Source of the DNA: a virus
Strand: one strand, 5' to 3'
Virus record (IMG/VR): IMGVR_UViG_3300046471_000128
Span: 32,001 to 96,000 of that record
DNA: 64,000 bases
Below the pieces are notes generated by a model. That model worked only from the letters and a program-made list of their open reading frames with translations. It did no database searches and was not told where the DNA came from. Within the stretch, counting starts at the first letter, position 1. Each line of letters begins with the position of its first letter. This document shows, piece after piece, positions 40,797 through 62,538 of this stretch. A program made the position numbers and the translations under genes.

Positions 40797-41191
40797 GGTT
40801 CTCTCCTGGGTAGGTCGGTGCAGCGCTCGTTGCGCTGCGACAGAAGAGAGTTTGACGGGCAAGTCTTGGATCACGCGTGCTGCGCTGCAGGCTCTTTATA
40901 GCCCCGCCACGGCCCCTGCAAGCAGCAGGTGCGCGTGAGCACACCCGCTGGCCCTGCTAGGGCGACCGATGGCGTCGACGCGCTTCGACACTGCGGCGGT
41001 GCTTTGCACGGCTCAGACGACAGACGAATGAATCAAGGAACAACACGAGCAGGAAGATCAAGATAAACAGCGCACCGTGGATCGGAATCAGCCACAGCCC
41101 GCCTTCATAGAGCAGCTTCATGGCTGGTCCCTGTGAGTGGTCAAGTGATTATCGTATTGACGCACTCACGGACCCGGGCGCTAGGAAGTCA

Positions 41192-41581
41192 TCAGGCCAG
41201 GTGGATCAGGTGTCCAAGGGCCGGCATCAGCTTGGCGACGTGGTGCGAGAGGCTCATCACGGAGAACCCGTCATCGAAGCCGATCACCGCAAGGGCCAGC
41301 GCACCGAAGGCGGCGCCCCGCTCGATCAGCTTGCCGCCGCGGCCCGCCATCCACTGCAGCGCCGCGTTCGAGACGGTCGGCTGCTTGCGCTCCGGCGCAT
41401 ACAGATTAACGTCTACCACCACCTCTTCAATGCGCGTCGCCGAGATCACCTCGATGCCATCGCGTTTATATGCCTGCACCATTGCCGCTACTACCCCTTC
41501 GATGGCCGCATTGTCGGAGCTCGTCGACACCGTAAATAGCTCGCCTTCCTGGTCTACACACTCGAATGTGATCCTGCTCAT
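41192..41581 (-). CDS. Hypothetical protein
   Basis: RBS and ORF with C-terminal hydrophobic segment. Confidence 0.6.
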   Translation of the reverse strand: MSRITFECVDQEGELFTVSTSSDNAAIEGVVAAMVQAYKRDGIEVISATRIEEVVVDVNLYAPERKQPTVSNAALQWMAGRGGKLIERGAAFGALALAVIGFDDGFSVMSLSHHVAKLMPALGHLIHLA

Positions 41582-42058
41582 TTCCCTACGACTCCAGATT
41601 CTTATTGATGAAGTGCCGATTGGATGCGGAGACGTTGGTGTCCCCTGCGCATGGGTCGAGATTGTCCATCAAACGTTTGCTGTCCAACAGATCAGGATTC
41701 AGCGTCATCTGCTAAGCAATCTTTTCCGATTCCTTATCTGGCAAGGGTTTTCACTGACATAAGTGTCAGATACATCGCTCCGCCATCGGTAAAAAATGTT
41801 AAAAAGGTAACATTTTGTAGCCGGAGGGCAACACTTAGTCGGTAAAAAGACCGGGATACCCAATTTGGCAGTAGATATCCCTTGCGTCCGCGTTAGAAGT
41901 GGTGTCGGCGTGCGCGTCGCTCTTCAGCCCGTTGCGTCTGACGCGCCATGCGATACGCTTCCCGCGGCTCAGCCCCTGCCGAGCGTGCACCCAGATAGAC
42001 CGCCCGCTCGATGAACGTGCGCAGCGTCCCGGCAGCGTAGTGTGTGGTTGCTGGCATC

Positions 42059-42235
42059 TCAGTGACCCCGCATCAGGTTGGCGATACGCTTGGGCATCGC
42101 ACAGCGCTTCAGACGGGCGGCGCGCTTCAGACCACCCGTGAAGAGGTCGATCAAGAACCAGAATGCGGCACCTATCACGACCGCGGCGAGAATCACGAGC
42201 AGCACGGCAAAGAACCACTGCAACTGTTCGAACAT
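42059..42235 (-). CDS. Small membrane protein (58 aa)
   Basis: GAGGT RBS; MFEQLQWFFAVLLVILAAVVIGAAFWFLI; repeated promoter element upstream. Confidence 0.55.
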   Translation of the reverse strand: MFEQLQWFFAVLLVILAAVVIGAAFWFLIDLFTGGLKRAARLKRCAMPKRIANLMRGH

Positions 42236-42394
42236 GGGACACCTCGTTGATGGGAGAGACTTCAGTCTCCCGACGAGGCTTCGGATGACACCCGGATACG
42301 TTTGCCCTCACGTGGCCGTGTGATATCACCTGGCCGTGGTAACCCAGGCTGCTTTCGGTCCTCCGATACACTATCCGCACCGGGAGGGCCATCT

Positions 42395-42706
42395 ATGACG
42401 TTGCTCGACTATCTGTCGATCGCCGCCACGCTTATAGGCTTTGCCATCTTTGTCACCCAACTTGTGCTGCTCGAACGCGAGCGCCGGATAACGCTTGCTC
42501 GATTGACCAAGTGGGCTTTGCTCCACGCATCGATTGTCGGCACCGGTCTGAGCGTCCTGATGCTCTCTAAATCATCTCCTTGGCTCATCGAAGATCCTGA
42601 CGCCTCTTCTCCCGTGCGTCTAAACATGCTCTCCACGAAGGATTTCATCGCCTTTGCGGTCATCTATATCTTCGTCGCGTGGCGCTCGTTGAAGTCATTG
42701 GAGTAG
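42395..42706 (+). CDS. Membrane protein with three predicted TM helices
   Basis: GGAGG RBS before ATG 42395; hydrophobic helices; lower GC. Confidence 0.55.
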   Translation: MTLLDYLSIAATLIGFAIFVTQLVLLERERRITLARLTKWALLHASIVGTGLSVLMLSKSSPWLIEDPDASSPVRLNMLSTKDFIAFAVIYIFVAWRSLKSLE

Positions 42707-42771
42707 GCAATCCACGGCGTGCCACGGCAACGAGCACACAAAGAACAACGGGCACACGGCCCGTCATCGGA

Positions 42772-43056
42772 TCAACCGAGGTCGCTGAAGTCGTGCCCGG
42801 AGCAATCGATGATCTCGACACGGCGCACCTGCGCAACCCGGCACTCACCGACGGGGATCATCATGAGGTGCGCCATCAGACGCCCGAACTGCGCTTCGGA
42901 CAGAAAGACAGGCGTCATGTGATACATCGAGCGGAGGTGCGCGTCGACAAAATCCTTCGACTCTTTGAGGCCCATCCCGGTGGTCGCACGGATCAGCTTG
43001 ATGAGCGGAATGCGATCGGTCGTGTTCGATTCGAGATAGGCTTTGATCTTCTTCAT
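42772..43056 (-). CDS. Protein with ribosomal L7/L12 C-terminal-like motif
   Basis: RIPLIKLIRATTGMGLKESKDFVD resembles bL12 [24 protein letters not shown]. Confidence 0.65.
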   Translation of the reverse strand: MKKIKAYLESNTTDRIPLIKLIRATTGMGLKESKDFVDAHLRSMYHMTPVFLSEAQFGRLMAHLMMIPVGECRVAQVRRVEIIDCSGHDFSDLG

Positions 43057-43119
43057 GCTGCGCTCCCTGCGCTGGTTGGTGAGCTTCTATTTTCTCGACC
43101 AACACATGGCCCAGACTTG

Positions 43120-43460
43120 GATACTTATAGGGCGCCAAGGGACTACTTTCCATAGGGCCACCGTCCGCGGCGGGCCAATCTTATACGTGGCAGGTGCCTA
43201 TACTTATACGTAGCACGGGCCAATCTTATAGAGCGCCAGCCGATACTTATACGAGCCACGGCGCGCCTTACGGGCCTGCAGCCACGGCAATTTGGCCAAG
43301 GATTTGAACGGATTCTGGGAGGGTGGCACGCCGCGGCCCTTGCTGGGCTTGGCTTTGAGCGAACATGGCTCGGGTTGGCTTGGCGAGTTCCCATAAGAAA
43401 ATTCTGTGGCGTGTCGATTGAAAGACAATGAAGCGCCGCAACAGCATGGAGCTCTTATAG
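43120..43460. repeat. Phased CTTATA(C/G) repeat array
   Basis: CTTATA at 43124, 43180, 43203, 43225, 43246 and 43454. Confidence 0.8.
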
Positions 43461-43938
43461 AGCCGAAGCGTATGTCTTGTGTCTCCATACCGGATCATCT
43501 ATGTGCATGAGTGTCGTTTAGGGCTTCCCTAGCCGTGATCTCTCTTACGGGATTGTCGTCCTCGGCGTTTCCGCCACAAGCATCATTCTTTCCTTTCTCT
43601 CTACTGGTAAAAGGGTTTGCGCCCGATCTGGTGGTTCGGACTCTAGCGTTGCGCTTCTCAGATCGCTTGGCATCGGGCTTGTTTGCGTTGCGGGTTGTCT
43701 GCTTACCTGTCGGGAAATGGAACGCTCGGCGCGGGCTTAGCGTTCTCTCTGGGCGGGCGTAATGGCGCTGCAATTGGGTCGAAAGTGCGGGCCTTACGGA
43801 AATACGCTAATACTGTTTACTATCAATGACTTACGGGCGTTTCGATCCGTGGCTGTCTCGGGGACGAAATAACACCCTGTATTTCCTAGTTTTCGTGCCG
43901 TTATCATGCGTGCGAATCGGATAACTAGAGGAACGAGA

Positions 43939-44322
43939 ATGCTGAGGAAATGGGTGGTTTGCGGCGCGCTCGCGTGTGCGGCTAGCAGCGCGTCCGCTGC
44001 GAATTGGGTCGTCTTGGATCGACAACCGGATATCACGAAAAGCGTGGATCTCTCTACCGTTGTCGTCAACGGCATCTATCGCAAGGTGTGGGTGCGATCC
44101 GACTACACGAACGGGTTGAAGATGCCAGGCGGGCAGAACATTGGGCAAATATTCTTGCGCTACACGCTGCGCTGCTCGGATCGTGAGTATGCGTCAGGTC
44201 AGCTCATTGCCTATGACCGTGGTGGGCAAATGGTGCATTCGGAAGACGGCGACCCGAACAAGTTCGAGGAAGCGGTGCCGGGCTCATTTGGGGAAGCCAT
44301 GCTTATCTCTCAATGCAAATGA
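43939..44322 (+). CDS. Exported protein (surface-adhesin-E-like)
   Basis: Signal peptide ending ASA-ANW; RKVWVR, Cys, VPGSFGEAM..C motifs. Confidence 0.6.
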   Translation: MLRKWVVCGALACAASSASAANWVVLDRQPDITKSVDLSTVVVNGIYRKVWVRSDYTNGLKMPGGQNIGQIFLRYTLRCSDREYASGQLIAYDRGGQMVHSEDGDPNKFEEAVPGSFGEAMLISQCK

Positions 44323-44335
44323 GACGGCACCGTCG

Positions 44336-44983
44336 CTAGCGCGTGCGGCCCCATCCGAGCGCTGCTGGCCGGCTGTAGTCGGCGAACTTCACCTTGAGCC
44401 AATCCTTTGAGCGACCGCGCTGATACGGCGCGTCGAGTCGCTTGCCTACCATCCCTTCAAAGTCGTGCTGTTTCACCTGATCGAACACCCATGCCCCTGC
44501 CGAGACGACTCCGGTCACGTAGACGAGCACGGCGGTGTTCTCGAATGAGTCGCGCAACAGCTCTTTTCGTTCGACGAGTGGCAGCTGCCTAATGTCGCGC
44601 TCACCATCGGCGAGCATGTCGAACACGTAGAGACGCGCCGGGTGCAGCTTCATGGCGGCGCGCACGCGTGTTGCGACCGATGTGCGGGCACGGATCTGCA
44701 GACGCTCGAACGAGGACTGGCCGGTTGGCTCGTCGACCGTGAGCTCCGCATCCCACACGAAGTTGCCATACACGTTCTCGACCGCCGCGACCACATCAGG
44801 AAACGAGCGATTCATGAGGTTGCCCTGCCGCGAGATCAGCTCGACCCGCGAGCCGACCTTGCGCACCAGACAGCGGAACCCGTCGTATTTAAGTTCGAAC
44901 AGCCAATCCTCACGGGAAAACGGCGCGCGGTTGAGCGTGGCGAGCATCAGGTCGCCCGCGTCGATCAGCGGGATGGCACTCAC
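44336..44983 (-). CDS. ATP-dependent DNA ligase, adenylation domain only (LigD-like)
   Basis: WLFELKYDGFR, DAEL, YVFDML, EGMVGK, WLKVK. Confidence 0.88.
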   Translation of the reverse strand: MSAIPLIDAGDLMLATLNRAPFSREDWLFELKYDGFRCLVRKVGSRVELISRQGNLMNRSFPDVVAAVENVYGNFVWDAELTVDEPTGQSSFERLQIRARTSVATRVRAAMKLHPARLYVFDMLADGERDIRQLPLVERKELLRDSFENTAVLVYVTGVVSAGAWVFDQVKQHDFEGMVGKRLDAPYQRGRSKDWLKVKFADYSRPAALGWGRTR

Positions 44984-45180
44984 AACTTTGAGATCCGCGC
45001 GCTGACGAAGGCGAGCTTCGCCCAGGCATAGGCTTGGGCGCTAACTTCACTGCGATTGCAGCCCGAGTAGGCGCAGAAGTGGTCGAAGTCGTCGAGCACC
45101 GTGTGGCCGTGCTCGTCCGGTGTCAGCGGGCGCGCAGCAAGGATGTCGGCGAGCATTTCGTCTGGATTTCCATAGCACAT
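44980..45180 (-). CDS. Hypothetical protein
   Basis: GGAGG RBS; coupled to the ligase gene. Confidence 0.6.
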   Translation of the reverse strand: MCYGNPDEMLADILAARPLTPDEHGHTVLDDFDHFCAYSGCNRSEVSAQAYAWAKLAFVSARISKL

Positions 45181-45251
45181 GGGAGCCTCCGTGGAGTGTC
45201 AAACCCTTGAGCATAAAGGATTCCCGGTCGCTGGACCGGGAAGCTGGCGCG

Positions 45252-45551
45252 TTACCAGTCGTATTGCGGCAGGTCCGCGACCACGCTCTGATCACAGTCC
45301 ATGCGCAACCACTTGAGGTTGTGCCGGTTGCCCCACTCCATCACTTCGCGCAGGTCCGCCGGCAGGTTCAGTTCGTCGAGCAGGTCGCTCGGCTGCACCC
45401 AGAGGAACCAGCCGTGCTCATACGCGGCGACGATCGTCCACGGGCATTGAGCGTCGCCCTTGTCCAGTTGCTCCGCCGTCTCTCTCGTGACGTGGCACGT
45501 CGAGATCGCTGGGATGATGTCCACGTTGAAAATTTCTACGTTGCTGCTCAT
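45252..45551 (-). CDS. Hypothetical protein (DUF5983-like)
   Basis: ISTCHVT..YEHGWF..WLRMDCD..LPQYDW. Confidence 0.6.
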   Translation of the reverse strand: MSSNVEIFNVDIIPAISTCHVTRETAEQLDKGDAQCPWTIVAAYEHGWFLWVQPSDLLDELNLPADLREVMEWGNRHNLKWLRMDCDQSVVADLPQYDW

Positions 45552-45596
45552 GTGCTTCTCCAAGCTGCGCCCGGGCGCTCGGCCCGGGCTGTGGTG

Positions 45597-46112
45597 TTAT
45601 TCGGGCAGGAGCTCGTCGCTCAGCATTTCGAGCAGCGTCTCGCTGTCATGGCACACCAGCGTGGTGATGTCGTCATCGACCGGCACGCCCGCGTCGCGCA
45701 GAATCTTGAGCACGGTTTGCGCGCGCGCAACGACGTCGGCATCGACCTCATCGTCATCGACGTGTCCGTCTTGCGTCTCGACCAGGCGACGCGCAAAGCA
45801 CACGGCCCACTCTTCGGGCGTGGCGCAGGTGTATTCCCACGGTGACGCACCTGCGGCGCCCATATCGCCCGACAGGTCGAAAACCCACTTGTGGTCAGGA
45901 CCGCGCCCGATGATGACCTTCGCGGCTGCGTAGACCATCGAGACGGACTCGACGCAGATCGCGTGTTTGTGGAACTGGTCGATCACGAACCCGTAGGCGT
46001 CGAGATACAGGTTGTCGAGCGTCTGGTTGGACTCTTGCACGAGCTGCTCGGCGGAGGGCTTGAACTCGGACGTGTCGACAGTCGCGAGGATTTCTTCGTA
46101 GGTGATGGACAT
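45597..46112 (-). CDS. Acidic hypothetical protein
   Basis: ATG 46112 downstream of the promoter element. Confidence 0.65.
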   Translation of the reverse strand: MSITYEEILATVDTSEFKPSAEQLVQESNQTLDNLYLDAYGFVIDQFHKHAICVESVSMVYAAAKVIIGRGPDHKWVFDLSGDMGAAGASPWEYTCATPEEWAVCFARRLVETQDGHVDDDEVDADVVARAQTVLKILRDAGVPVDDDITTLVCHDSETLLEMLSDELLPE

Positions 46113-46132
46113 GGTGTGTCTGGGTGGTTGTG

Positions 46133-46180
46133 GTTGCGATGAAGTCATTCTCCCGACCCGGGTGTGGCCCGGGCCCGGAT
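46133..46180 (-). promoter_or_regulatory. Repeated hairpin-promoter element (representative copy)
   Basis: Plus strand GTTGCGAT..ATTCT-N13-TGGC-N7-CGGAT; about 17 copies between 40.8 and 62.5 kb. Confidence 0.8.
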
Positions 46181-46187
46181 CGGTTGA

Positions 46188-46580
46188 TCAGTGGGCGGAC
46201 GTAAGCATTTCGGGAATGACCATCGGCAAGCTGGTCGAGCACGGCTCGTCGAGATTCAGAATGTCGAACGCTTCGGCGACAGGGCGGCCCGGGTGCGCGT
46301 AGGCGTTCAGCGTCGCGGTCACGCACGCTTCAAGGTGGTCGGCGTCACGGTAGTGCGGCGACACGCCCGCGTCGAAGGATTCGACGATCACCGTGTTCCC
46401 GTGCAGGATCACCTTACCGACGCACGGGATCGGCCCGGTGTGGTCAGGATGCTCGAACTTCACGACCAGGACGACACCACCGTCGGCACGGGTGCGCAGA
46501 CGGTAAAGGCGCGTGTGGTGCACGTTGCGGTAGGCGTGAGCATGGGCACGGCGCTGCTCGGGATTCAGGTTGAGGCTCAT
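46188..46580 (-). CDS. Hypothetical protein
   Basis: ATG 46580 after element 46598-46645. Confidence 0.6.
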   Translation of the reverse strand: MSLNLNPEQRRAHAHAYRNVHHTRLYRLRTRADGGVVLVVKFEHPDHTGPIPCVGKVILHGNTVIVESFDAGVSPHYRDADHLEACVTATLNAYAHPGRPVAEAFDILNLDEPCSTSLPMVIPEMLTSAH

Positions 46581-46621
46581 GATGTTTCTCATGTGTCGTT
46601 TCGATAGACACAGTTTCCCGA

Positions 46622-46918
46622 TCACGCACTGGCGCGCTGTCGGATCGTTTGTGCGGTGTGCGGCACCGGGTAGCGGGCGACCAGCCACTCGGTGAACTGC
46701 TGTTGTTCGGCGAACCCCATCTCTGCTCGGACCGTTGCGTGCACATCGCACCAGAGCTTCGCCTGGTGGCCGATCCAGTAGACATAGGGCCGCGTGTGGT
46801 GCGTGCCGTAGCGCGCCATGTCCTTCGCAAGCTGCTCCGCCGGCGACCCTGCCCCGTGCGCGATACAGTAGGCGGCGTAGCGCGGCGTCGCGCCCTTGAA
46901 CGGGCCGCGCGCGATCAC
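46622..46918 (-). CDS. Hypothetical protein
   Basis: Coupled ORF. Confidence 0.55.
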   Translation of the reverse strand: MIARGPFKGATPRYAAYCIAHGAGSPAEQLAKDMARYGTHHTRPYVYWIGHQAKLWCDVHATVRAEMGFAEQQQFTEWLVARYPVPHTAQTIRQRASA

Positions 46919-47181
46919 CAGCAGACCTCGATCTGTTCCACCTGCTCGGGGTCGATGAGGACATGGCGCCCGGTGGGTGCGAGATCGGCATCAGGGCGGG
47001 GCTCCCACAGCTCCAGCTCCAGCAGCAGCCCGCCTTTGTGCACGCGCATTTCGCCGCCGTAGACCGAGCCGTGCACCTGCCGACCCGAGCGCAGCCACAG
47101 GTTCACGGTGTAGCCGTTCCCGTCGTTCTTCTCGTCGTTCGCGTCAGCGAGCGCGTAGGCAACGATCGTGCGCCCGCTCAT
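46915..47181 (-). CDS. Small Sm/LSm-like beta protein
   Basis: VNLWLRSGRQVHGSV..VLIDPEQVEQIE. Confidence 0.5.
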   Translation of the reverse strand: MSGRTIVAYALADANDEKNDGNGYTVNLWLRSGRQVHGSVYGGEMRVHKGGLLLELELWEPRPDADLAPTGRHVLIDPEQVEQIEVCW

Positions 47182-47468: not shown

Positions 47469-47558
47469 GGTTGGTGTCCCGTGGTTGCGATGTGTTCAGT
47501 GTCCCGACCGATCGTTGGACCGGTCGCGGCTTTCGTTACGGGTGACTTATTCGCCCGC

Positions 47559-48071
47559 TTATTGCGCGCCCCCGAGCCCGATGGCGATCGAGATACGCTC
47601 GTCGGACACCAGCGCGCGAATCCGCTTGGCGACCATATCGGGCGTGACGAGCGGAATGCCGTCGTCAAACATGACATCTGGCTCGTCATCGTATGATTCC
47701 GCGTTGAACAGGTATTGAGCCCATGAGTCATTCAGACCGAAGAAGTTCTCGATGGCGGCCCAGCCCTCACGGCCCTCGTAAAATGGCTGCGCGTGCCGCG
47801 CGCCCCAGACCGGAACGACCAGCTTGAGCCCTTGGGATTGGAACTCGGGCATCAAGGCGGCGTGCCCGCACGCGCACGCGGCGGCACCACACTGCACCTT
47901 GACGGGATCGACCACGATGGACTTGGCACCACCGAGCAGCTGGACAACTTCTCCCGTGGAGGGCAGATCCGCAGGCGCTTTCAACCAGTGGTCGAGGTGG
48001 AATGCGGCGGGCGCTGCGAATGTCTGCTGCTCAAGCACAGTGGCGAGCAGCTCAAGGCGTTCGATGTTCAT
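47559..48071 (-). CDS. Hypothetical protein, CGxxAC family (paralog of 59570..59977)
   Basis: CGAAACACGHAALMPEFQSQGL. Confidence 0.7.
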   Translation of the reverse strand: MNIERLELLATVLEQQTFAAPAAFHLDHWLKAPADLPSTGEVVQLLGGAKSIVVDPVKVQCGAAACACGHAALMPEFQSQGLKLVVPVWGARHAQPFYEGREGWAAIENFFGLNDSWAQYLFNAESYDDEPDVMFDDGIPLVTPDMVAKRIRALVSDERISIAIGLGGAQ

Positions 48072-48099
48072 GTTTGTGTGTGTGGTTGGTTGCGACAGG

Positions 48100-48513
48100 T
48101 CAATTGTCGTGATCGTCTGCTGGCGTGTGCACGTCGGTGCGTGGATGGTTTTCGAAAATCTGCTGCGGCGTGCCGCGGTAGTCGTCGAAGCGGCTAATCT
48201 CGCGACGGCAGTCCGAGCAGTAGAAGGCGCGCATCGGGCGGTTCCACCACTTCACGTCCTCACCGCGCGTCTCACATGCCGTGACGTTGCACTTGCCGCC
48301 GAACTGGCCCTTGCCGGTCTGATCGATGTGCCCATACGGATCGTCGGGCAGCTCGCGCGGCGCACGGAGAACGTCCGCGACCGCCTGGATCTGTTCCCGC
48401 GACGGCATGCGGCCGCGCGCACCGGGATAGACGCGATTCAAGGACACGCGCTGCGTCGTGTTCAGGGACGGTGCCGTCTTCATGAGACGGCGTTCTTTCT
48501 TGGTCAGGTGCAT
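48100..48513 (-). CDS. Hypothetical protein with Cys cluster
   Basis: KGQFGGKCNVTAC..YCSDC. Confidence 0.6.
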   Translation of the reverse strand: MHLTKKERRLMKTAPSLNTTQRVSLNRVYPGARGRMPSREQIQAVADVLRAPRELPDDPYGHIDQTGKGQFGGKCNVTACETRGEDVKWWNRPMRAFYCSDCRREISRFDDYRGTPQQIFENHPRTDVHTPADDHDN

Positions 48514-49341: not shown

Positions 49342-49407
49342 GTTGCGCTCCCTGTGCGCGTTGTCGATATGAAGATTGTCCCGACCGGGCATTGGCGCCC
49401 GGTTGGA

Positions 49408-49614
49408 TTAGTCACTGCCCCACTTGCGATCCTCTGCGATCTCCGCGAGGGCCATCTCCTGCACGCGATCAAGATCGGCTTGCAGGGCGCGACGCCGGCG
49501 ACGGGCGCGCAGGATCATGCGCAAGATGTTCTTGGCGTGGGCCTCAGTCATATCGTCAACCGCGATGCGACGGCCGTCTTGACAGCGCCAGATTTCGTCG
49601 GGTGGCGTGCTCAT
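49408..49614 (-). CDS. Hypothetical protein
   Basis: WRCQDGRRIAVDDMTEAHAKNILRM. Confidence 0.6.
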   Translation of the reverse strand: MSTPPDEIWRCQDGRRIAVDDMTEAHAKNILRMILRARRRRRALQADLDRVQEMALAEIAEDRKWGSD

Positions 49615-51053: not shown

Positions 51054-51419
51054 GGTCGTTTCTCTGTGTGGTTGCGATGAATTCATTTTCCCGAGCGCCC
51101 GTAGGCGCATCGGTGGACTTATTTCGCATGGGTTTTACTGGCTGGTTGCGGTGAAGTAAATTGTGCTCGCGCCCCTTTGGCAAGCTAAGTTACCGCTTAT
51201 TTATCCATTATAGCCACGCGGAAAGATCGGGCGCGTGAAAACGTGCAAGATGTTGCGCGATTTGTGCAACTTTTTACCGGGGGTGCCGAACCCTTGCCTA
51301 CCCGTAGATAGACGGTCGGTGCTGTGGGAAGGGTAATTTTGGGCGCGGTGGCCCGCCCGAGGGCGCCGTGGCAGCGCGCGGGCACGAACAAAGCGGGCCG
51401 AAGCCCGCTTCGCTGACGG

Positions 51420-52505
51420 TCATTCAGCCGCCGTCGTTTCTTCCGCCGTCACTTCTTCGACGACCGGCTCTTCAACCGTCGGCTCTTCAACCGTCGGCTC
51501 TTCAACCGTCGGCTCGACGGTCGGTTCTTCCGCAACCGGTTCTTCGGGCAGCGGTTCGCTTGCCGGGTTCATCGCTTGCTGCGCCATCATGAGGAACAGC
51601 GAGTTCGGGTTGGGAACAAATTCGCCCTTGCCCGTCTGGACGATCATCTTCGTCTTCTCCATCACCGTCACCGTGTTGCGGCCCATCGCGCGCGCAGCGC
51701 TCGGGCTATACGGCTTGCTCAGCAGGTTCTTGTGGAGGTTCCCGTTGTCGCCCGTCTGGATCTTCCCGTCGGCGGCGAGCACGTCGAGGGCACGCTTGAA
51801 AATCTCGTTCGGCTTGTTCGTTTTGCCCGACAACCAGTCCATCAGGAGCGAGGCGCGATTCTTGACCTTGACGGACATCGCGTCGATCACCGCGAGCGTC
51901 TCGTCCTGCTTCGCTTTCAGCGCATCGCCCTCCAGCCCAGCGTCAGCGATCTCCAGCACGAGGTAGTCACCGAGCGACGCACCCAGGCGCGCTACGATGC
52001 GATCCGTCTTGTTCTGGTAGTGCGTGCGCGGGGCGCGGACCTTCTTCGCTGCTGCGGCGGTGGGCTCTGCTGCGCTCATTTCGGTCGCAAGCGCTTCTTC
52101 GGCGAGCAGACGCTCTTTCTCGGCTTCTTCGTCCGTGACGCCCTCGTGGGCAGGCGCATCAGCGGGCACCAGCGCGTAGGCTTCTTGCACTTCGATGTTG
52201 GCGAGCGCAGCTTCGAGCGCTTCCCCGTGCGCTTCTTCGGACGGGAGTGCGGACTCGGCTGCGACTTCGAGCAACGGCGGCACGTCGAGAACTTCGACCG
52301 TCCCGGAGTCGAGCAGGACTTCTTCGCTCGATTCGACCAGTGCGGCGACCGACGCTTCGAACGTCTCGACCGGCGCTGCGCCCATGTTCGGCTCGCCCAG
52401 CACATCGAGGAGCGCTGCGAGTTCGGGGTCCATCGGGGCTGCTTCGCTCGCGCCCAGCATGTTGATGTTGAGGACGGCTGCGACTGCGTTTTTCTTGGCG
52501 TTCAT
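51420..52505 (-). CDS. Acidic protein with wHTH-like core and EEPTV repeats
   Basis: AGGAGAG RBS before ATG 52505; two promoter elements upstream; tandem 15-bp repeats at 51460-51530. Confidence 0.75.
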   Translation of the reverse strand: MNAKKNAVAAVLNINMLGASEAAPMDPELAALLDVLGEPNMGAAPVETFEASVAALVESSEEVLLDSGTVEVLDVPPLLEVAAESALPSEEAHGEALEAALANIEVQEAYALVPADAPAHEGVTDEEAEKERLLAEEALATEMSAAEPTAAAAKKVRAPRTHYQNKTDRIVARLGASLGDYLVLEIADAGLEGDALKAKQDETLAVIDAMSVKVKNRASLLMDWLSGKTNKPNEIFKRALDVLAADGKIQTGDNGNLHKNLLSKPYSPSAARAMGRNTVTVMEKTKMIVQTGKGEFVPNPNSLFLMMAQQAMNPASEPLPEEPVAEEPTVEPTVEEPTVEEPTVEEPVVEEVTAEETTAAE

Positions 52506-52803
52506 GATGCTCTCCTGAGTGAGATTGGGTAACGCGTTCATCGCGTCAGATTCAATTTTGTCGATCAGGTAGAGGCGCGTATCGCATGAGTCAGGATCGT
52601 TTCTCTGCCCGGTCTGGGTGTCGTGCACTGCATCGACTAGAGAAATTCTAGGGAGCGGGTTGTGGCGTAAATCCTGTGCGTTTGGATATGTGCTTGCTAG
52701 AAAGAAAGGTGCGCGCGCCCGCGCGAATAGCACCGGGCTTCTGGCTCGGGCCCGGAAAATAGAAAGGGCGCCCGAAGGCGCCCTGTCATGGGGTTGGAGG
52801 CTA

Positions 52804-54046: not shown

Positions 54047-54055
54047 GGTCGCTCC

Positions 54056-55167: not shown

Positions 55168-55321
55168 GTTTTAGAACTCCTCAATTTGTATGTCCGGAAC
55201 CCGCCGGACGCGGTTTGTTTAAACCTGCCCGGTATCGCTTCGTTTTCTGCGTTGCGTTACCGTATTAGTATTCTGACTTGCGATTCTTGGCGTCGTTTTG
55301 GATCATTGCGACGCGTTCAAA

Positions 55322-56057: not shown

Positions 56058-56562
56058 CGAACTCCGGCGAGCCGGGCTGTGTTGCCGGGTCATACGCCCC
56101 GTCTACGGTGGCCGTCATGAGCGCCCACGCTTCGGTGAACGCTCGGTATTCCGGAAATTGCGAGGTGTCCACGTCGAAGACGCGGCGCATGAAGATCGCT
56201 GCGCCCTCATTGCCGAGCCGGTGCTTGTCAGCGGCGTTGGTGCCCGCATCGACCACCGCCATCGCGATGTTGCAGTGCCAGGACCACGCATACGCGTCGC
56301 CACCTTTGAGGGCGGCCTTCAACGCGTCGAGTGCCGCAGGCGCCTGCTGGGCTTCGTGGAGCTTCACCAGCAGGTGGCCCACGAGATCGATCAGATCGGA
56401 CTTCGCGTGACGCTCACCCACGAGAATCGCGGCCGCGTCGAACGCCGGGTAGTGCGGGAAAAGGTTCACGCCGCTCGGGTGCGACGCCAAAATCGTCTCT
56501 TGATCGACGTAAAATTGCTGAGCCCGCGGCGCGAGGTGATGCTTGTGATTCGGAATGGTCAT
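55999..56562 (-). CDS. Hypothetical protein
   Basis: YAWSWHCNIAMAVVDAG..FMRRVFDVDTS; after element 56594-56627. Confidence 0.65.
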   Translation of the reverse strand: MTIPNHKHHLAPRAQQFYVDQETILASHPSGVNLFPHYPAFDAAAILVGERHAKSDLIDLVGHLLVKLHEAQQAPAALDALKAALKGGDAYAWSWHCNIAMAVVDAGTNAADKHRLGNEGAAIFMRRVFDVDTSQFPEYRAFTEAWALMTATVDGAYDPATQPGSPEFDGAEAYEAHLAATVGDTRA

Positions 56563-57029
56563 GCTTGGTTCCCCGTGTTTTTGCATTGATTTGATTGTCC
56601 CGACGCACTCTCGGCGGTGCGCTGGATCTCTTCGACCGTGTAACCGCACTTGCATGCGATGCTCGCTTTGGCGCTGCTGTGCACGACGTATTGGCGCCCG
56701 TTCGGCTGCGTGATGAGCCATTCGCCTTCGAGCGTGGGCGGCACTTGCACCACCTGAGCGGCTTCGAGAAAGCGCCGCTGCATCTCTTCGCCCTGTTTCC
56801 AACGCGTGCCGAGCGCCCTCTCGATCGCTCTTAGCGCATTACTCGCAGCCGCAGCGCCGTGCGCGCGCAGGTCGAGCGCGAGGTGGTAGTCGCCAATCGC
56901 CTGACGAATGGCAGCCAACTGCTCGTCTGGGCGGTGCGAATTCGCGATTTCGGTGATCGCGAATATCGGCACTTCGATAGCTTTTTGCTTTTCAGGCAGA
57001 GGATTTATCAGTCTCTCAATATTTTTCAA
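56559..57029 (-). CDS. Hypothetical protein
   Basis: DYHLALDLRAHG..AIERALGTRWKQG; TTG start overlapping the upstream stop. Confidence 0.55.
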   Translation of the reverse strand: MKNIERLINPLPEKQKAIEVPIFAITEIANSHRPDEQLAAIRQAIGDYHLALDLRAHGAAAASNALRAIERALGTRWKQGEEMQRRFLEAAQVVQVPPTLEGEWLITQPNGRQYVVHSSAKASIACKCGYTVEEIQRTAESASGQSNQCKNTGNQA

Positions 57030-57250
57030 TCCAACTTCTCCCTCAATTCAAAGATCCAGCCAGGCTTATCAAGCTTTAGCTGCTCACATTTGGCTTTTAA
57101 CCGGCTAACCTGCGATTCGGTCCTAGCCCAATAAACTGTGGCTTTACTTAACTGTGTTACCTGGACCATATGATCCATGTCCATCGCCTTGAAACGCTTC
57201 TCCCTCGGGGCTCTACCGTAAATCCGGTAGTCCTTCAGACGCGTGCTCAT
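57026..57250 (-). CDS. Hypothetical protein
   Basis: GGAGAGG RBS; lower GC. Confidence 0.55.
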   Translation of the reverse strand: MSTRLKDYRIYGRAPREKRFKAMDMDHMVQVTQLSKATVYWARTESQVSRLKAKCEQLKLDKPGWIFELREKLD

Positions 57251-57531
57251 CGGCCTCTCCTTTGATTATAGGATGAGTTACCTCTTACTTATGTTGAAGG
57301 ACTAAAAAAAAGCGCCCTTCTCCCGCCCTGCTGCTTTTCAGATTACCGATCACTTATTGGACCGACTTCAATCTCTTTGCGAGCTCCTCGATTGTCACGT
57401 TCTCCGAGGTCACACCGCCCAGCAAACCAAGAATCGGTAACTTAATCAGGAGACTGATAGTCGACCAGAGCCGATATAGAAGCGTCGATGGACGCGCGAG
57501 ACTCGGAATGATCAGATTAAACAGCAGAATC

Positions 57532-58245
57532 TCAGGCAAGGTCAGGAATGCCCATACCGACCCGAGCCACAAGCTGTTCAGCCGGTTCTTGTTCTTCCCA
57601 AGGCGGTATTGATGAAAGCCGGGGGTCCATAACATAGTTGTTCCACTCCTCTTCATTGAAGCCAAACGCGAACGTGCGCCTGTTGTTCTGGTCGAGCATC
57701 CTATCCGCTTTCCGCGATTCTCGCTTTTTCGAGCATTCGTCTGCGCTAGGCTTAGGGCGCTTAGGGCGCGTGAAAAGCTCGGGCAGCGGCTCTACACGGG
57801 CCTGTGCGCGTGCCTCGCGCATTCCCATCTTAGCTAGGTGATCGCATTGATTATTGACCCACAGACGCGGCTGCTCCCCGTTTGTGTGCCCTTTGACGTG
57901 CTTCCAACGCACGGTTGCGTTTTTGATCTGAAGGAGTGCGACCAACCCGTCAACGATAATCCTCTCGTCTTCCTGCAGGATACGCTTTCGCTCGAAGGCT
58001 GCAATAGCCGCGGTGCAGTCGGTCTGAATGAGTATCGTGTCGCCCGGCCATGCAATCAAGTGCACGAATGTCATGTGCAGAGCGTTTAGACACGCCATCA
58101 TTTCCGCGATGCCGCTGTTACGGGCAAGGGACTTAAAAGGCCCGCCTCCCGAGTGTTGCCCGCGCAAGGACTTCGACCAGTAGCCAAAGCCGCCCGCGCG
58201 AGTTTCAGGATCGAACGACGCGTCGGCGAATACGCTTACGAGCAT
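57532..58245 (-). CDS. Ribonuclease HI-like protein
   Basis: VFADAS, AEMMA, IQTDC, WKHVKGH, NNQCDHLAK. Confidence 0.88.
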   Translation of the reverse strand: MLVSVFADASFDPETRAGGFGYWSKSLRGQHSGGGPFKSLARNSGIAEMMACLNALHMTFVHLIAWPGDTILIQTDCTAAIAAFERKRILQEDERIIVDGLVALLQIKNATVRWKHVKGHTNGEQPRLWVNNQCDHLAKMGMREARAQARVEPLPELFTRPKRPKPSADECSKKRESRKADRMLDQNNRRTFAFGFNEEEWNNYVMDPRLSSIPPWEEQEPAEQLVARVGMGIPDLA

Positions 58246-58424
58246 GCGCAGCCCTCCCTGATCCCGCCAACCGCCTTGATGTGATCCGCATACTGGATCG
58301 GCAGCCCAAGCTCCCTTGAGATCCGCGCGTGCAGGTGCGTGTCGTCGTCCCACGGTTTTTCCGTGATGTGTTCAAGCGCCTCGCGCAGCAGCCCCCGAAG
58401 GCGGTCTTCGGTCGCGGTGCTCAT
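58236..58424 (-). CDS. Hypothetical protein
   Basis: Coupled ORF. Confidence 0.55.
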   Translation of the reverse strand: MSTATEDRLRGLLREALEHITEKPWDDDTHLHARISRELGLPIQYADHIKAVGGIREGCACS

Positions 58425-58906
58425 GCGGGCACCTTGCGCTTCGTCGGCGGGATATGCCCGTTCCCGTTGGGGGTGAAGCGCTCGTAGACTTCGAGGAATG
58501 CCTCTGCGGCCGCGAGCGGTGACTTTCGCGCGATGCGGGCGCGCTCCTCACCCTCGGGTTGCCGACCCCAGCACCAGAAGTAATAGAGGCCGTCCTTCTC
58601 GTGCATCGGTAGCCCCGTCATGCGCCGCCCGCGGTGCTCCTGCACCAACGTCCACTCCTCGTCGGTGATGGCGCGCTCGGTCGCTTTGTCGGGCTCTGCC
58701 ACCTCGACGCGCGGCTCTTGCACGACCTTGATCTTCACGCGATGGCCCATGCCGCTATAGACCACGCCGTTGCCCGCGCGCAGCGCATCAAGGCTATCGA
58801 CATTGATCTTCGCGCCCGCACGGTCGAGCGTGTGGAGGATCGCTTCTGCGACACGGTGATGCCCGGAACCGACCTGACCCTTCACGATGACTTTGATTTT
58901 GCTCAT
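58421..58906 (-). CDS. Hypothetical protein
   Basis: Coupled ORF. Confidence 0.6.
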   Translation of the reverse strand: MSKIKVIVKGQVGSGHHRVAEAILHTLDRAGAKINVDSLDALRAGNGVVYSGMGHRVKIKVVQEPRVEVAEPDKATERAITDEEWTLVQEHRGRRMTGLPMHEKDGLYYFWCWGRQPEGEERARIARKSPLAAAEAFLEVYERFTPNGNGHIPPTKRKVPA

Positions 58907-59478
58907 GCTGCCTCCAGAACTGCGGGCACCGGCTGCACGATGTGCGGGCCGAAGAAGCCCATCGCGCGCGCAGCGAAGTAAGCCTGCATATTTACCGAAA
59001 TATCGTATTCAGCGGCATGGGCCAGCGCCGGGTTGTAGTCCACGCCGCAGGCGAAGCACAACTCGCCCAAGTTCGGCAGCTTGCCGAGCGGGGTCGCCCA
59101 GCGCGCCTCTTCCATCGTGTCGATCAGTTCGAGCTTCGGCACGGCCATCCCGATGCGCTGGAACTCGCCCGACAGGAACGGCCAGTCGAACCCGCGCACG
59201 TTGTGCCCGCCCATGTATTGCGCCGCGGTGAGAATGCGATGCACGTTTGGAGCGACCTGCTCCCACGTCGGCTCATTCGCTAGCATGTCGAACGTGATCC
59301 CGTGCACCGCCTGGGCGGCTGCGTCAATCGGCCGTTGCGGATTCACGCGCTGCACGTATTTGCCCATGAAGCGCGCGGACTCGAGCTCATAGAGCAAGGC
59401 GGCAACTTCGATGATGCGGTGGCCGGCGGACTGGTCTAGCCCGGTCGTCTCTAAATCCAGACCTACAAGAAGGGTCAT
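58903..59478 (-). CDS. DEDDh 3'-5' exonuclease (DnaQ-like)
   Basis: GLDLETTGL, HNVRGFD, AHAAEYD. Confidence 0.92.
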   Translation of the reverse strand: MTLLVGLDLETTGLDQSAGHRIIEVAALLYELESARFMGKYVQRVNPQRPIDAAAQAVHGITFDMLANEPTWEQVAPNVHRILTAAQYMGGHNVRGFDWPFLSGEFQRIGMAVPKLELIDTMEEARWATPLGKLPNLGELCFACGVDYNPALAHAAEYDISVNMQAYFAARAMGFFGPHIVQPVPAVLEAA

Positions 59479-59569
59479 AAGAACCTCACATTTAATAACT
59501 GTTCGCTTACTTATTATAGCGCCCGCTCTTTGGCGGGCACGTTTTAGAACTAATGGGCGATCTTGCGTT

Positions 59570-59977
59570 TCATGCGGCGGCCCACGCGGCGAGTTGACTC
59601 TTCAACTGCCCGTGCCTCGCCAGGAAGTCGCGAATGCGCTTGAGAGCGATCTTCTTGTGGCTCCGCTTCGTCGTGTGCGCCGGTCTGAACAGTGCCCACG
59701 CGATCGTAGAGTTGATTCCGAAGAGCTTTTCGAGCGCCGCGTAACCCCGCTCGTCGCCAACTGCGATCATGTCGTAGCCAGGCTGCGCTCCGTCATATCG
59801 CAGACCGAGCGCCTGGAACTTCGGGTGCAACGTCAGCCACCCGATCGTGCAGGCGACCGTGCCGCAGTTCATACCGTTGTCGCGCGCCCGCCAGTTGTCC
59901 AGGTCGATGTTCTCTGCGGGGATTCCGTCGATGATTTCGTAGGCGTCTTTCAACAGTTCGAAGTTCGGGCGTTGCAT
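59570..59977 (-). CDS. Hypothetical protein, CGxxAC family
   Basis: CGTVACTIGWLTLHPKFQALGL. Confidence 0.7.
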   Translation of the reverse strand: MQRPNFELLKDAYEIIDGIPAENIDLDNWRARDNGMNCGTVACTIGWLTLHPKFQALGLRYDGAQPGYDMIAVGDERGYAALEKLFGINSTIAWALFRPAHTTKRSHKKIALKRIRDFLARHGQLKSQLAAWAAA

Positions 59978-60066
59978 GGGCTCTCCTGAATGGTCTCAAT
60001 GCGACCGGGTTGCGATTGAGTCATTCTCCCGACCGCGCATTGGCGGTCGGGCGGATACAGCGGGTG

Positions 60067-60450
60067 TTACGTGAGTGCGAGTTGGTGCTCGGCGGCGATA
60101 GGCGAACCCACCTGCTCACCTTGCACCGGCTCCCCTGCGAGAGCAGCATCCAGCGCAGCGTCTTCCTCGGGCGTCATCGGTGCGGCGGCCGACTTCGCAC
60201 GCTTCGGGAGGATCTCGCGCAGCGCGTCGGCGTTGTCCACGATGAAGCAGGCGACTTGGTTCACCGTCACCGCGTCGAGATACTGCATGCTGTCCTCGCT
60301 GTTCGGCAGCTGTGCAGCAACGAGCTCCATGACCTTGCGCACGCGGTCCAGGTCAGCCTGGTGCTTCATCGCGTCAACCTTGCTCTCGAAGGTTTGGCCG
60401 TCGCTGGTTTCGTATTGGGCCTTGACGATGCGCTTGATGAGGTTTGCCAT
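60067..60450 (-). CDS. Hypothetical protein (phage dsDNA-binding-like N-terminus)
   Basis: YETSDGQTFESKVDAMKHQ. Confidence 0.6.
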   Translation of the reverse strand: MANLIKRIVKAQYETSDGQTFESKVDAMKHQADLDRVRKVMELVAAQLPNSEDSMQYLDAVTVNQVACFIVDNADALREILPKRAKSAAAPMTPEEDAALDAALAGEPVQGEQVGSPIAAEHQLALT

Positions 60451-60517
60451 GATGTGTAGATCCTTATAGGGAGTGGAAAATCGGGTCCGCGCTGGCGCGG
60501 ATTTCTCGGTTTGGGTT

Positions 60518-60985
60518 TTACAGCTTCACGCGGCCGGTTTCACGCAGGGTGTCGGCCAGTTGCAGCGTGGACATTTCGATCAGCAGCACGTCGCGGTTGC
60601 GGGCCGGGTCGAACTTGCGGAGCGAACTGGGCGCAGCGCCGTTCACGCGTTCGAGCGCTTCGACGAGCTCCTCGCGCAGGTGCAGCAGCGTGCGGGCTTC
60701 GGCGAGCACCGGGTGCGGCGCGAACATGCAGGAGATGCTGTCCGTCTCCATCACGCCCGGAATGTATTCGACGATGTGGCCGGGGAAGTGCTTGCTCTCA
60801 AAGAGGATCACCCCGCCGCCCCGGCGGGATTGCGCGAAGATCGCCTTCTTCTGTTCGTCGGTGCGGTTCTGAAGCTCCCCCAGGATGGTGTAGAGCTTGT
60901 CCTCGTCGCGAATGATCTGGATCTCGTTCGCACGGGCGACGAGATTGGCGACGTCAAGACGAATGGCTGAAATGGTGGTGCTCAT
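60518..60985 (-). CDS. Hypothetical protein
   Basis: GAGG RBS; operator copy upstream. Confidence 0.65.
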   Translation of the reverse strand: MSTTISAIRLDVANLVARANEIQIIRDEDKLYTILGELQNRTDEQKKAIFAQSRRGGGVILFESKHFPGHIVEYIPGVMETDSISCMFAPHPVLAEARTLLHLREELVEALERVNGAAPSSLRKFDPARNRDVLLIEMSTLQLADTLRETGRVKL

Positions 60986-61049
60986 GTTCCCTCAAAGGTT
61001 GTTAAGTTTCTCGTTACTAATCATTATAGTAACGAGAAAAGATCGGCGA

Positions 61050-61352
61050 TCAGAACTGCTGCTTGATCGAATCCGCGAGCTTGTCGTAAGCGCGCAGGCG
61101 CGTGAGGACGTGGTAGATCGAACGATCCGAAGTGCTGCTGTCCTTCATGCCGGCGATCAGCTCGTCGGCGTTCTCAGCCCACTGGAACTCCCCGCCGTGC
61201 GTGACGGTGAGAATCGACTGGTTGATTCCGCCGTAGAAGTGCACGCTCGGCTTCAGGAACTCGGGCGACAGCGTGAGAGTGCCGACGAACCCGTCATCGG
61301 GTGCTTGTGCGCCGCTCGGGGTGAGCGGCGGCACGTATTGACCGCTTTCCAT
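61050..61352 (-). CDS. Hypothetical protein
   Basis: GAGGAG RBS before ATG 61352. Confidence 0.55.
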   Translation of the reverse strand: MESGQYVPPLTPSGAQAPDDGFVGTLTLSPEFLKPSVHFYGGINQSILTVTHGGEFQWAENADELIAGMKDSSTSDRSIYHVLTRLRAYDKLADSIKQQF

Positions 61353-61362
61353 CAGGTTCTCC

Positions 61363-61803
61363 TCAGAGGGCGATAGCGCCCGGTTGATCACGGAATTTCT
61401 TCGCGGTGGTCAGGAACAGGCGCAGCGCGGACGCGGAGGAGTCGTCCTCGACGCGGGTTTCCTTCGACACCAGCGCGACGCCCGGCTTCTTCAGGGTCGT
61501 CTCGACCGTCAGGCTGCCGACGAGCCACCGCACGACGACGACCACCTCGCCGATCACCGTGACCGAGCGCTGGACCTCGCTCACCCCGCCCAGATACTCC
61601 TTGCGGGCCGCGCTGATGATCTCCATCGACTCTTTGCTCACCAGGCCCGCCACACCGCCCCACAGCCCTTCGAGGGTCTGGTGGTAGGCGTAGCTGGTGA
61701 TCTTGCCGGCGCGCACCGCCAAAAACGCGCGCTCGATCTCCTCGACGACCTTGCGTTCGAGCTCCTCGCGAATGGTCGGCGGCTCGCCGTTGAGCGTGCT
61801 CAT
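61363..61803 (-). CDS. Hypothetical protein
   Basis: Coupled ORF. Confidence 0.6.
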   Translation of the reverse strand: MSTLNGEPPTIREELERKVVEEIERAFLAVRAGKITSYAYHQTLEGLWGGVAGLVSKESMEIISAARKEYLGGVSEVQRSVTVIGEVVVVVRWLVGSLTVETTLKKPGVALVSKETRVEDDSSASALRLFLTTAKKFRDQPGAIAL

Positions 61804-62432
61804 GCTGCGACGGGAACGATGGCGAGGGCGGGCGCCGGCTTCGCGGGCTTGATTACGCCCACCTTGATGCCGGCGTCGCGCAGCGCCGCGTTCAGGTCAT
61901 CGACCGGCAGCGCGGGCAGCATGGGCTTCGGGGCAGTCAGATCGGACGGGAGGAAGCCTTCGACCTCGGGCCACATTTCGATCAGCTTGTTGAGCGAGGA
62001 CGTCGCATAGACGGTGAGCCGGATGCTTTCCGCAAGCTCACCGCGCTTCTTGTCCAGGGCGGCGCGCTCATCGTCGAGCGTGCGATAGGCGAGATACACG
62101 TCGCGGTCATAGACCGACAAATAGCCGAGACTTTCGCGTGAGAAGAATGGCAGCGGCTTGGCTACCTCGACGCTTCGCTCGGTCTTGAGATGACTTTTCG
62201 TGTCCACGTCATAGAAGCGCAGCGTCAGGCTGTTGGTCAGACTGAGAAACTCTTCGGGCGCCTGACGCGCTGCCTTCTCCTTCGCGGCGGGCACCACCGA
62301 GCGGTAGCAGTCCATCGCGATCTTGGCGAGGCGCTTCTTGATGTCCGCATACTCTTTTTCGAAAGCGCCGCGCAGTGCATTGGAAATGATCTGGTCGCGG
62401 GCGTGGTTGGTCAGCTTAACGTTCTTCGTCAT
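61800..62432 (-). CDS. Nucleotide modification-associated domain 5 (Nmad5)-like protein
   Basis: VKLTNHARDQIISNAL ... SLNKLIEMWPE ... LPALPVDDLNAAL. Confidence 0.65.
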   Translation of the reverse strand: MTKNVKLTNHARDQIISNALRGAFEKEYADIKKRLAKIAMDCYRSVVPAAKEKAARQAPEEFLSLTNSLTLRFYDVDTKSHLKTERSVEVAKPLPFFSRESLGYLSVYDRDVYLAYRTLDDERAALDKKRGELAESIRLTVYATSSLNKLIEMWPEVEGFLPSDLTAPKPMLPALPVDDLNAALRDAGIKVGVIKPAKPAPALAIVPVAA

Positions 62433-62538
62433 GGAGAAATCCTCTAATTGTTTGATTTGAAAGGGACAACCGACACTTAGAAGTGTAGTCGTCCCTGTTT
62501 GGCAATTTGTAACCGGTGACTTATCGTAACCGGTTTTC

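Follow-up and report, generated by a model that had tools for sequence, protein, structure and literature searches.

The 64,000-nucleotide window analysed here, bases 32001-96000 of the 107,509-bp viral record IMGVR_UViG_3300046471_000128, carries a family of short promoter-like elements without a -35 hexamer, which we call class B and which look like a new layer of phage gene control before small genes. These elements stand on one strand only, keep a fixed distance to the start codon that follows and are conserved in relatives. This agrees with the proposal of an earlier model-made reading of the window (the sequence-only reading) that they form a phage-specific promoter class.

Architecture and conservation of the class B elements

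All 17 positions at which a recurring motif had been noticed between 40834 and 62503 fit the pattern KCCD-N13-ANAMT on the minus strand. The motif is more frequent in this region than background: the minus strand has 19 matches and the plus strand two, where 200 dinucleotide shuffles gave 2.85 +/- 1.69, with a single-box maximum of 8. All ten matches to the two-box form, KCCD-N7-KCCD-N13-ANAMT, lie on the minus strand, and the shuffles gave 0.10 +/- 0.32. Nine sites (60023, 56594, 51085, 49375, 47498, 46612, 46147, 43089 and 42264) share the core layout ATCC-N8-GCCA-N8-TCGG-GAnAMT-N6-ATCGMAAC, or a related word in last place. Seven looser variants (59513, 55270, 52645, 52555, 51160, 48103 and 40849) have lost the other blocks, but their box 2 still stands at N12 from a hexamer that resembles a -10. 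The estimate of about 17 promoter elements thus holds for nine core copies and seven variants, but not for site 62482, which is a terminator hairpin.

The geometry of the core copies is strict. The spacing of 11 bp between boxes (K to K) and the gap of 12 bp between box 2 and the hexamer are exact, and the box is never GGGM, as had been noticed: none of the 34 core elements of five genomes (introduced below) has a C following CC in box 1 or box 2. Columns that the search did not force are also conserved, namely the T before CC (33 of 34), TCGG and CATCG. The hexamer is GAnAMT in every core copy and TATAAT, TAGAAT, CAGAAT or CACAAT in variants; its A2 and T6 were demanded by the search pattern, and their conservation is partly by construction. 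The downstream word reported earlier, ATCGCAAC, follows six copies, but the others carry ATCGAAAC, ATCGACAA, CTCACCAAC or TCTCCCAT. The distance from hexamer to start codon is mostly 30-36 nt, with a ribosome-binding site in between, and ATCGMAAC lies about 25 nt before the start codon. Columns -35 to -30 are unconserved in the core alignment, in line with the reported lack of a -35 hexamer, and no element shows a TTGACA-like hexamer with a spacing of 16-18 bp to its -10. A scan of the ~20-kb region for consensus -35/-10 promoters, in which 4.2 were expected, returned a single one, which does not coincide with an element. The searches relied on degenerate regular expressions and anchors; a position weight matrix built from 8 seeds was overfitted and gave nothing new. 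ATCGMAAC alone was rejected as a family marker, being too common (39 vs 13); the hexamer stands at the exact offset in 18 of the 39 ATCGMAAC anchors.

The record has a GC content of 62% and almost all of its genes on the minus strand, and a 127-bp overlap between its ends indicates a circular assembly. By protein similarity, its portal, capsid and terminase place it in the SSU5-like siphovirus/phage-plasmid group, with ~50% amino-acid identity to SSU5-type elements of Klebsiella, E. coli and Salmonella, to Rhizobium RHph_N1_10 and to Pseudomonas nickie. ParA-like, Arc-like and Rep genes are present. Two of its proteins have homologues in plasmids of Paraburkholderia sp. RCC_158, Burkholderia sp. 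MSMB1072 and Cupriavidus metallidurans, and the host is therefore likely a member of the Burkholderiaceae. Judged by its predicted proteins, the element-bearing genome is a ~107-kb SSU5-like phage-plasmid of Burkholderiaceae, with a temperate lifestyle. SSU5-like phage-plasmids are common large plasmid-prophages of Proteobacteria, and their gene control is essentially unstudied.

A megablast of the region against GenBank phages gave no match, and relatives were obtained by a protein-based scan, which returned three IMG/VR records (G001, G002 and G003). G003 (IMGVR_UViG_3300046694_000296, 215,656 bp) is not a single large genome: it consists of two related ~107.8-kb genomes, G003a and G003b, fused via a common 127-mer and sharing 75-90% nucleotide identity in blocks. 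The five-genome set comprises the record under study, G001, G002, G003a and G003b; plasmid NZ_CP090528.1 of the isolate Cupriavidus metallidurans ZM16 served for further comparison. Gene calls came from our own simple gene model.

Across the five genomes, all 37 matches to the core regular expression lie on the coding strand. The same is true of the 29 matches to the module hexamer-N6-ATCGMAAC, 7 of which are in NZ_CP090528.1. The Cupriavidus metallidurans plasmid carries a reduced form, GACACT-agaccc-ATCGMAAC, without ATCC and TCGG. Elements are kept in relatives while their flanks diverge, and they stand before 7 orthologue groups and 14 unrelated genes. Upstream of a gene of 361 amino acids, boxes and hexamers form phylogenetic footprints in otherwise diverged sequence (four genomes). 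Variants without ATCC and TCGG have a canonical TATAAT or TAGAAT, and their KCCA at N12 is kept in relatives. The individual sites of the region are as follows.

60009-60056, minus: core; ATCC, GCCA, GTCGG, GAGAAT and ATCGCAAC; 9-bp hairpin (dG -19.7, z -4.5); orthologue in G001
59499-59546, minus: variant; GCCA-N12-TATAAT with hairpin, without ATCC/TCGG; before an RNase T/DnaQ-like exonuclease gene
56580-56627, minus: core; GACAAT, leader CAATGCAAAAACACGGGGAACC; orthologues in G002, G003a and G003b with differing stems
55256-55303, minus: variant; ATCC-N8-GCCA-N12-CAGAAT
52541-52678, minus: two tandem variants, GCCA-N12-TAGAAT and GCCT-N12-CAAAAT, upstream of the 361-amino-acid gene
51146-51202, minus: hybrid of a class A palindrome half, GCCA-N12-CACAAT and CACCGCAAC
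51071-51118, minus: core; GAAAAT, ATCGCAAC; one-bulge hairpin; G001 and G002 orthologues compensated in both arms
49361-49408, minus: core; GACAAT, ATCGACAA, hairpin
48089-48136, minus: variant; GCCA-N12-GACAAT-N6-GTCGCAAC, box 1 displaced; G003a and G003b orthologues are core copies
47484-47531, minus: core; GACACT, ATCGCAAC; 9-bp hairpin including one G-T pair
46598-46645, minus: core; GAAACT, ATCGAAAC; start of an HGGM-free run spanning two cassettes
46133-46180, minus: core; GAGAAT, ATCGCAAC; strongest hairpin of the window (dG -21.9)
43075-43122, minus: core; GAAAAT, leader CTCACCAAC; before an L7/L12 C-terminal-domain-like gene
42250-42297, minus: core; GAGACT, leader TCTCCCAT; without hairpin (z +0.5)
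40835-40882, minus: weak variant; TCCA-N12-CAAACT
62463-62495, minus: false member (site 62482); terminator-like hairpin GGGACGAC...GTCGGTTGTCCC, then TTT

The supposed -10 of site 62482 sits in the loop of this TTT-tailed hairpin, and the site is for that reason an intrinsic terminator and not a promoter; the same architecture is repeated in G003a. The 59513 variant retains KCCA-N12-TATAAT/TATACT in G001 and G003a, and the hybrid at 51160 has orthologues in G001-G003 and in the Cupriavidus plasmid. The L7/L12 C-terminal-domain protein (PF00542, 1.7e-07; window 42772-43056, minus) belongs to what reads as a single-gene unit, with a putative class B promoter, an HGGM-poor gene and a T-tailed terminator at 42744-42768.

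Looser matches lie beyond the region at genome positions 96997, 105541 and 106661. A core-like match (KCC boxes and GATCCCGAAAAT) stands within a coding region at genome 22271 (window -9729) and is kept in G001 (9557), G003a (31937) and G003b (32473); it may be a promoter within the gene, or may arise by coincidence where the encoded peptide is conserved. An exact scan of IMG/VR for TCGGGANAAT-N6-ATCGCAAC gave three matches in unrelated lower-GC contigs, which we set aside as chance.

Promoter reading, candidate factors and other explanations

Position, strand, the A2/T6 hexamer, its 7-nt distance to a conserved A and the short leader with a ribosome-binding site together give these elements the anatomy of a promoter. 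From this anatomy we infer promoter activity, and we consider it probable, with considerable room for doubt, that class B elements are lineage-specific promoters which dispense with the -35 and need a box-reading specificity factor instead. The polymerase would use a -10-type hexamer, GAnAMT with A2 and T6 kept, extended upstream by GTCGG, and the -35 would be replaced by a direct repeat of KCC(D) boxes, spaced by 11 bp and lying near -40 and -28. The predicted start site is the A of ATCGMAAC, 7 nt past the hexamer, or a neighbouring base, which would result in a G-poor leader of 22-28 nt with a GGGA-type ribosome-binding site. Sigma70 alone should use such sites poorly because of the G at -12 and the lack of a TGn. 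The missing -35 is the sole pointer to activator dependence: since -35 recognition is missing, the open complex most likely needs a box-reading factor. This factor could be an activator encoded by the phage, as MotA is in T4 and CII in lambda, or a sigma-like protein of the phage itself. Boxes, hexamer and leader provide sequence handles for tracing whatever replaces -35 recognition.

Two proteins are candidate factors only and are so far unlinked to the elements. One is a sigma-like protein of 229 amino acids encoded outside the window (genome 8081-8770, minus), between the genes of an AAA/CbbQ-type ATPase and DNA polymerase III alpha. It has sigma2- and sigma4-like halves, is weakly matched by Sigma70_r2 (14-16 bits), belongs to phrog_351 and bears the JGI name sigma24; its top Foldseek matches are all sigma chains, and the list as a whole contains almost nothing else. 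Homologues occur on Paraburkholderia, Cupriavidus, Methylobacterium and Acinetobacter plasmids of 106-117 kb. The other is a protein of 223 amino acids encoded in the adjoining region (window 39262-39933, minus), whose gene is read from a putative canonical sigma70-type promoter, TTGCAC-N17-TACTAT. In its structure model (pLDDT 83.7), the C-terminal half resembles winged-helix DNA binders with Z 5-6 (VIA-align), a likeness that is suggestive only. A Foldseek search with this protein found nothing, and a scan of genome contigs gave no relative. Its gene and the 361-amino-acid gene, both purged of HGGM as described below, were considered as paralogues, an idea that the BLASTP result (E = 0.05) did not support. 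The DNA modification that the sequence-only reading raised as an alternative to an activator found no support, and no homologue of TGT/DpdA (tRNA-guanine transglycosylase type), as expected for a modification of the 7-deazaguanine type, was found. An operon linked to the terminase encodes ParB_N (twice), ABC ATPase, thioredoxin, SprT-like and Tad2-like domains; its member of 329 amino acids had no Pfam match, GNAT included.

Several observations weigh against factor-dependent promoters of this kind. The G in first position and the absent TGn are poor for sigma70, which leaves promoter activity putative. Searches of the whole genome gave no match at E <= 1 to MotA (MotCF, PF09158) or AsiA (PF09010), and Phage_CII (PF05269) likewise had no match at E <= 1. 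The Sigma70_r2 score of the 229-amino-acid protein is under the Pfam cut-off, and no conserved block pair of the elements fits well the 16-17-bp spacing of an ECF-type sigma promoter, the gaps being 19-20 bp (ATCC/GTCGG), 12 bp (GCCA/hexamer) and 6 bp (hexamer/ATCG), though so divergent a sigma may have other preferences. The form conserved in Cupriavidus, GACACT-agaccc-ATCGMAAC, could equally fit an RNA-level or start-site-proximal function. Finally, orthologous element copies are not independent, and the copy counts given above overstate the sample size.

The four stems quoted by the sequence-only reading are present, and the 30-nt stretch that runs from ATCC to GGGA has a mean folding energy of -12.7 kcal/mol, compared with -7.4 for shuffled sequences. 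Folds of -10 kcal/mol or lower are reached by 65% of the core copies, compared with 10% of random 30-mers. The description of the elements as hairpin-forming applies to 19 of 34 core copies (z < -2), but about a third have no hairpin. Stem sequences vary, and one orthologue set changed both arms together; the stem centre shifts by up to 2 nt, with loops of 4-6 nt. Folding energy does not differ between sense and antisense (p = 0.24), and the hairpin is stronger where an upstream stop codon lies within 40 nt (-15.2 vs -8.8, p = 0.0016). Element hairpins have no T tail and are followed by GAnAAT; nearby T-tailed terminators are separate hairpins. Because a third of the copies do without it, its stem shifts, the strands do not differ, its strength tracks the upstream gene end and it has no T tail, the hairpin appears to lie outside promoter recognition. 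Its 3' arm is the conserved GTCGG block, and the 5' arm has evolved to pair with it where the preceding gene reaches almost to the element. The probable task of the hairpin there is to mark or shield the 3' end of that gene's mRNA, or to keep read-through transcription away from the promoter. Hairpin promoters of the N4 type have an obligatory 5-7-bp stem with a 3-nt loop and are read by a single-subunit RNA polymerase of the phage. Set beside these N4 virion-RNA-polymerase promoters, about a third of the elements described here have no hairpin, loops are of 4-6 nt and the register shifts by 2 nt. A PF00940 search for a T7-like single-subunit RNA polymerase gave no match, and its control was likewise silent.

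Class B shares features with several known systems. The proposed likeness to T4 MotA-dependent middle promoters stands as far as a box 12 bp from the -10 and the lack of a -35 are concerned, and extends to the many copies before early or accessory genes, but homologues of MotA and AsiA were not found. The T4 MotA box, (a/t)(a/t)(a/t)TGCTT(t/c)A, lies 11-13 bp upstream of the -10 and is centred near -30. Class B differs from it in the word KCCD, the second box 11 bp upstream and a -10 that starts with G and is extended by GTCGG, and the host and phage lineages are unrelated. Hairpin-linked middle promoters (promoter middle stem-loops, PmSL) have been described in T4-like phages (PMC4122927). 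The lambda CII promoters pRE, pI and pAQ have TTGC-N6-TTGC flanking a non-functional -35 (PMC4651098). They share with class B a direct tetranucleotide repeat around -35, beside a weak -10. However, the period in lambda is 10 bp and 3 promoters serve lysogeny, while class B has a period of 11 bp, other words and 10-17 copies before accessory genes. Late promoters of phage P1 depend on Lpa and combine a -10 with an inverted repeat, without a -35. P1 is thus reminiscent of our system as a phage-plasmid with many -35-less promoters that require a phage factor; its late pattern is better matched by the AAGTNAC palindrome/TATAAT family treated in the last section, as the boxes of class B are direct and without dyad.

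The same blocks could be read as host sigma70 promoters of the -10-only kind, in which ATCC, GCCA and GTCGG are repressor operators that silence accessory genes in lysogeny. A temperate phage-plasmid with ParA and Rep genes would offer the setting, the boxes overlap the footprint that RNA polymerase requires, and an operator-like palindrome overlaps TATAAT elsewhere (17 vs 0.9 expected), which suggests a multi-operator style. We nevertheless judge this improbable: sigma70 by itself would have very little activity on sites that have a G at -12 and neither TGn nor -35, the boxes form direct repeats without dyad, and ATCC and TCGG are missing from the very variants that have the best -10, a pattern that suggests compensation for a weak -10 more than an operator. 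Another explanation places the element at the RNA level, as an intercistronic sequence where read-through transcripts are processed at or after the hairpin and the AUCGMAAC leader controls stability or translation. The retention of sequence-varied hairpins, some with G-T pairs, the tracking of the upstream gene end by hairpin strength, the deepest conservation at or after the presumed start and an HGGM purge that spans leader and gene, as a property of the message would, are all consistent with it. An RNA role would, however, need neither A2/T6 nor the exact 6-nt gap to ATCG, and variants approach TATAAT. A third of the copies have no hairpin, folding energies are equal on the two strands (p = 0.24) and no Rfam family matched. 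Furthermore, read-through RNA is not expected at those elements that lie behind a T-tailed terminator or a long gap. Together these points make the RNA-level explanation about as improbable in our view as the operator one.

The elements lie between small co-oriented ORFan genes, one element type precedes many unrelated genes and some homology blocks begin or end at an element, all of which invites an interpretation as recombination sites, either linkers of the promoter early stem-loop (PeSL) type or folded attC-like sites, that shuffle small gene cassettes. PeSL of T4-type phages consist of a near-consensus TTGACA-N17-TATAAT promoter and a separate stem-loop (PMC2839356, PMC4122927). Like class B, they are units of stem-loop and promoter between small non-essential genes, with the stem-loop at the upstream gene end. 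Unlike them, class B has no -35, a full -35/-10 promoter is absent here, and the stem-loop is made from the promoter's own upstream blocks. The homology of the region with relatives is mosaic, but the cassette shuffling suggested earlier did not hold up: homology breakpoints, taken as ends of high-scoring pairs in four relatives, number 1.22 per element junction and 1.26 elsewhere. Breakpoints are thus equally common at element-free junctions, and because they are not enriched at elements the PeSL analogy fails functionally. In integrons, attC sites pair an inverse core RYYYAAC with a core GTTRRRY in an imperfect palindrome. Here we found no inverse-core/core pair: each element has one CGCAAC-like word, which lies outside the hairpin, and GTTGCGAT is without an inverted partner. 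Recombination sites are accordingly a highly improbable explanation, and promoters read with a box-dependent factor remain our preferred one.

A void island and strand-specific purge of HGGM

The words of the two boxes are also distributed unevenly outside the elements. The stretches concerned are the following.

38740-40182, both strands: HGGM/KCCD-void island holding the conserved gene of 223 amino acids
40256-40323, minus: iteron-like array of the 15-bp KCCACGAAGCRTCGG, ~4.5 copies and degenerate ones, then an AT-rich stretch; upstream of the 223-amino-acid gene
45597-46645, minus: two consecutive purged cassettes; 1 HGGM on the sense strand vs ~29 expected
45597-46645, 42059-42297, 42772-43122, 47559-48136 and 51420-52588, sense strand of first genes: purged stretches

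In the 1443 nt of the void island the word occurs 3 times, whereas the genome as a whole has 88 +/- 14 per 1400 nt; GC content drops to 51% there. The island is conserved in four relatives, among which motif-free gaps of 1137, 1521 and 1475 nt were found, and NZ_CP090528.1 has an 836-nt motif-free gap around the gene at 32710-33300, a distant homologue of the 223-amino-acid gene. Iterons, AT-rich stretch and TTGCAC-N17-TACTAT occupy window 40190-40335 in the minus-strand reading, and this module looks like an origin or initiator module by its sequence. Relatives carry different repeats, of the GGGCCACA type, at the iteron position. A relation of the iterons to box 2 (KCCAC) was discarded, as 8 of 34 copies is not above expectation.

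A related depletion is linked to class B cassettes, where the first gene after many core elements is poor in sense-strand HGGM. Observed and expected counts in first genes of this genome include 0/12.7, 1/16.6, 0/5.7, 2/9.2 and 5/16.5. Over the five genomes, the median observed/expected ratio is 0.54, compared with 1.00 in background windows, and 11 of 34 genes fall at 0.3 or below, against 2.9% of windows (p = 2e-9). The purge begins 15-45 nt before ATCC and stops at or just past the stop codon. Where purged genes still have GGC or GGA, it is always preceded by a further G (GGGC, GGGA), and their ribosome-binding sites belong to the GGGA type; these genes are not G-poor in base composition, and KCCD is not depleted on their sense strand. 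The purge of 45597-46645 is seen likewise in the orthologues of G003a and G003b. The core cassettes of 60023 and 56594 are not purged. The sequence-only reading had equated the boxes with the word missing from the void island. The HGGM/KCCD word does matter in this lineage, but the simple equation fails because the downstream purge hits the complement of the box word.

To our knowledge, no described mechanism explains a promoter-linked, strand-specific purge of a degenerate four-letter word. One idea, which we regard as unlikely, is that class B cassettes (promoter, leader and first gene) are written HGGM-free on the sense strand and would thereby be immune to an activity that reads or cuts HGGM on one strand, with the void-island gene of 223 amino acids as first-expressed component of the same system. 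A candidate reader would be a phage or host endoribonuclease, with inter-cassette hairpins shielding 3' ends; an orientation-dependent DNA reader is another candidate. mRNAs without ACA survive the RNase MazF, and HGGM-free messages would survive a word-specific RNase in an analogous way. Since the purge recurs in the plasmid of an isolate, Cupriavidus metallidurans ZM16, it is accessible at the bench.

A second palindromic motif and neighbouring genes

The window has 17 copies of a palindrome, AAGTNAC-N2-GTNACTT, where 0.9 would be expected. Most of them stand beside TATAAT, before genes for structure, packaging and replication. The palindrome resembles an operator or a site for an activator, in a control by many sites comparable to that of P1. 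Its sites lie mainly in window 6326-39263, with few in the class B region (47533, 51187, 57275 and 62507). From the distribution of the palindrome and of class B, the genome appears split between two putative promoter classes, both without a -35. Such a pair of regulons would provide a testable map of the temporal programme, in which class B covers ~20 kb of small genes. Among the other genes of the window are those of a TIR-domain protein (PF13676, 2.8e-08; 36031-36804, minus) and of a protein with a Tad2-like (Thoeris anti-defence 2) domain (1.5e-11; 33214-33576, minus), which are candidates for defence or counter-defence.

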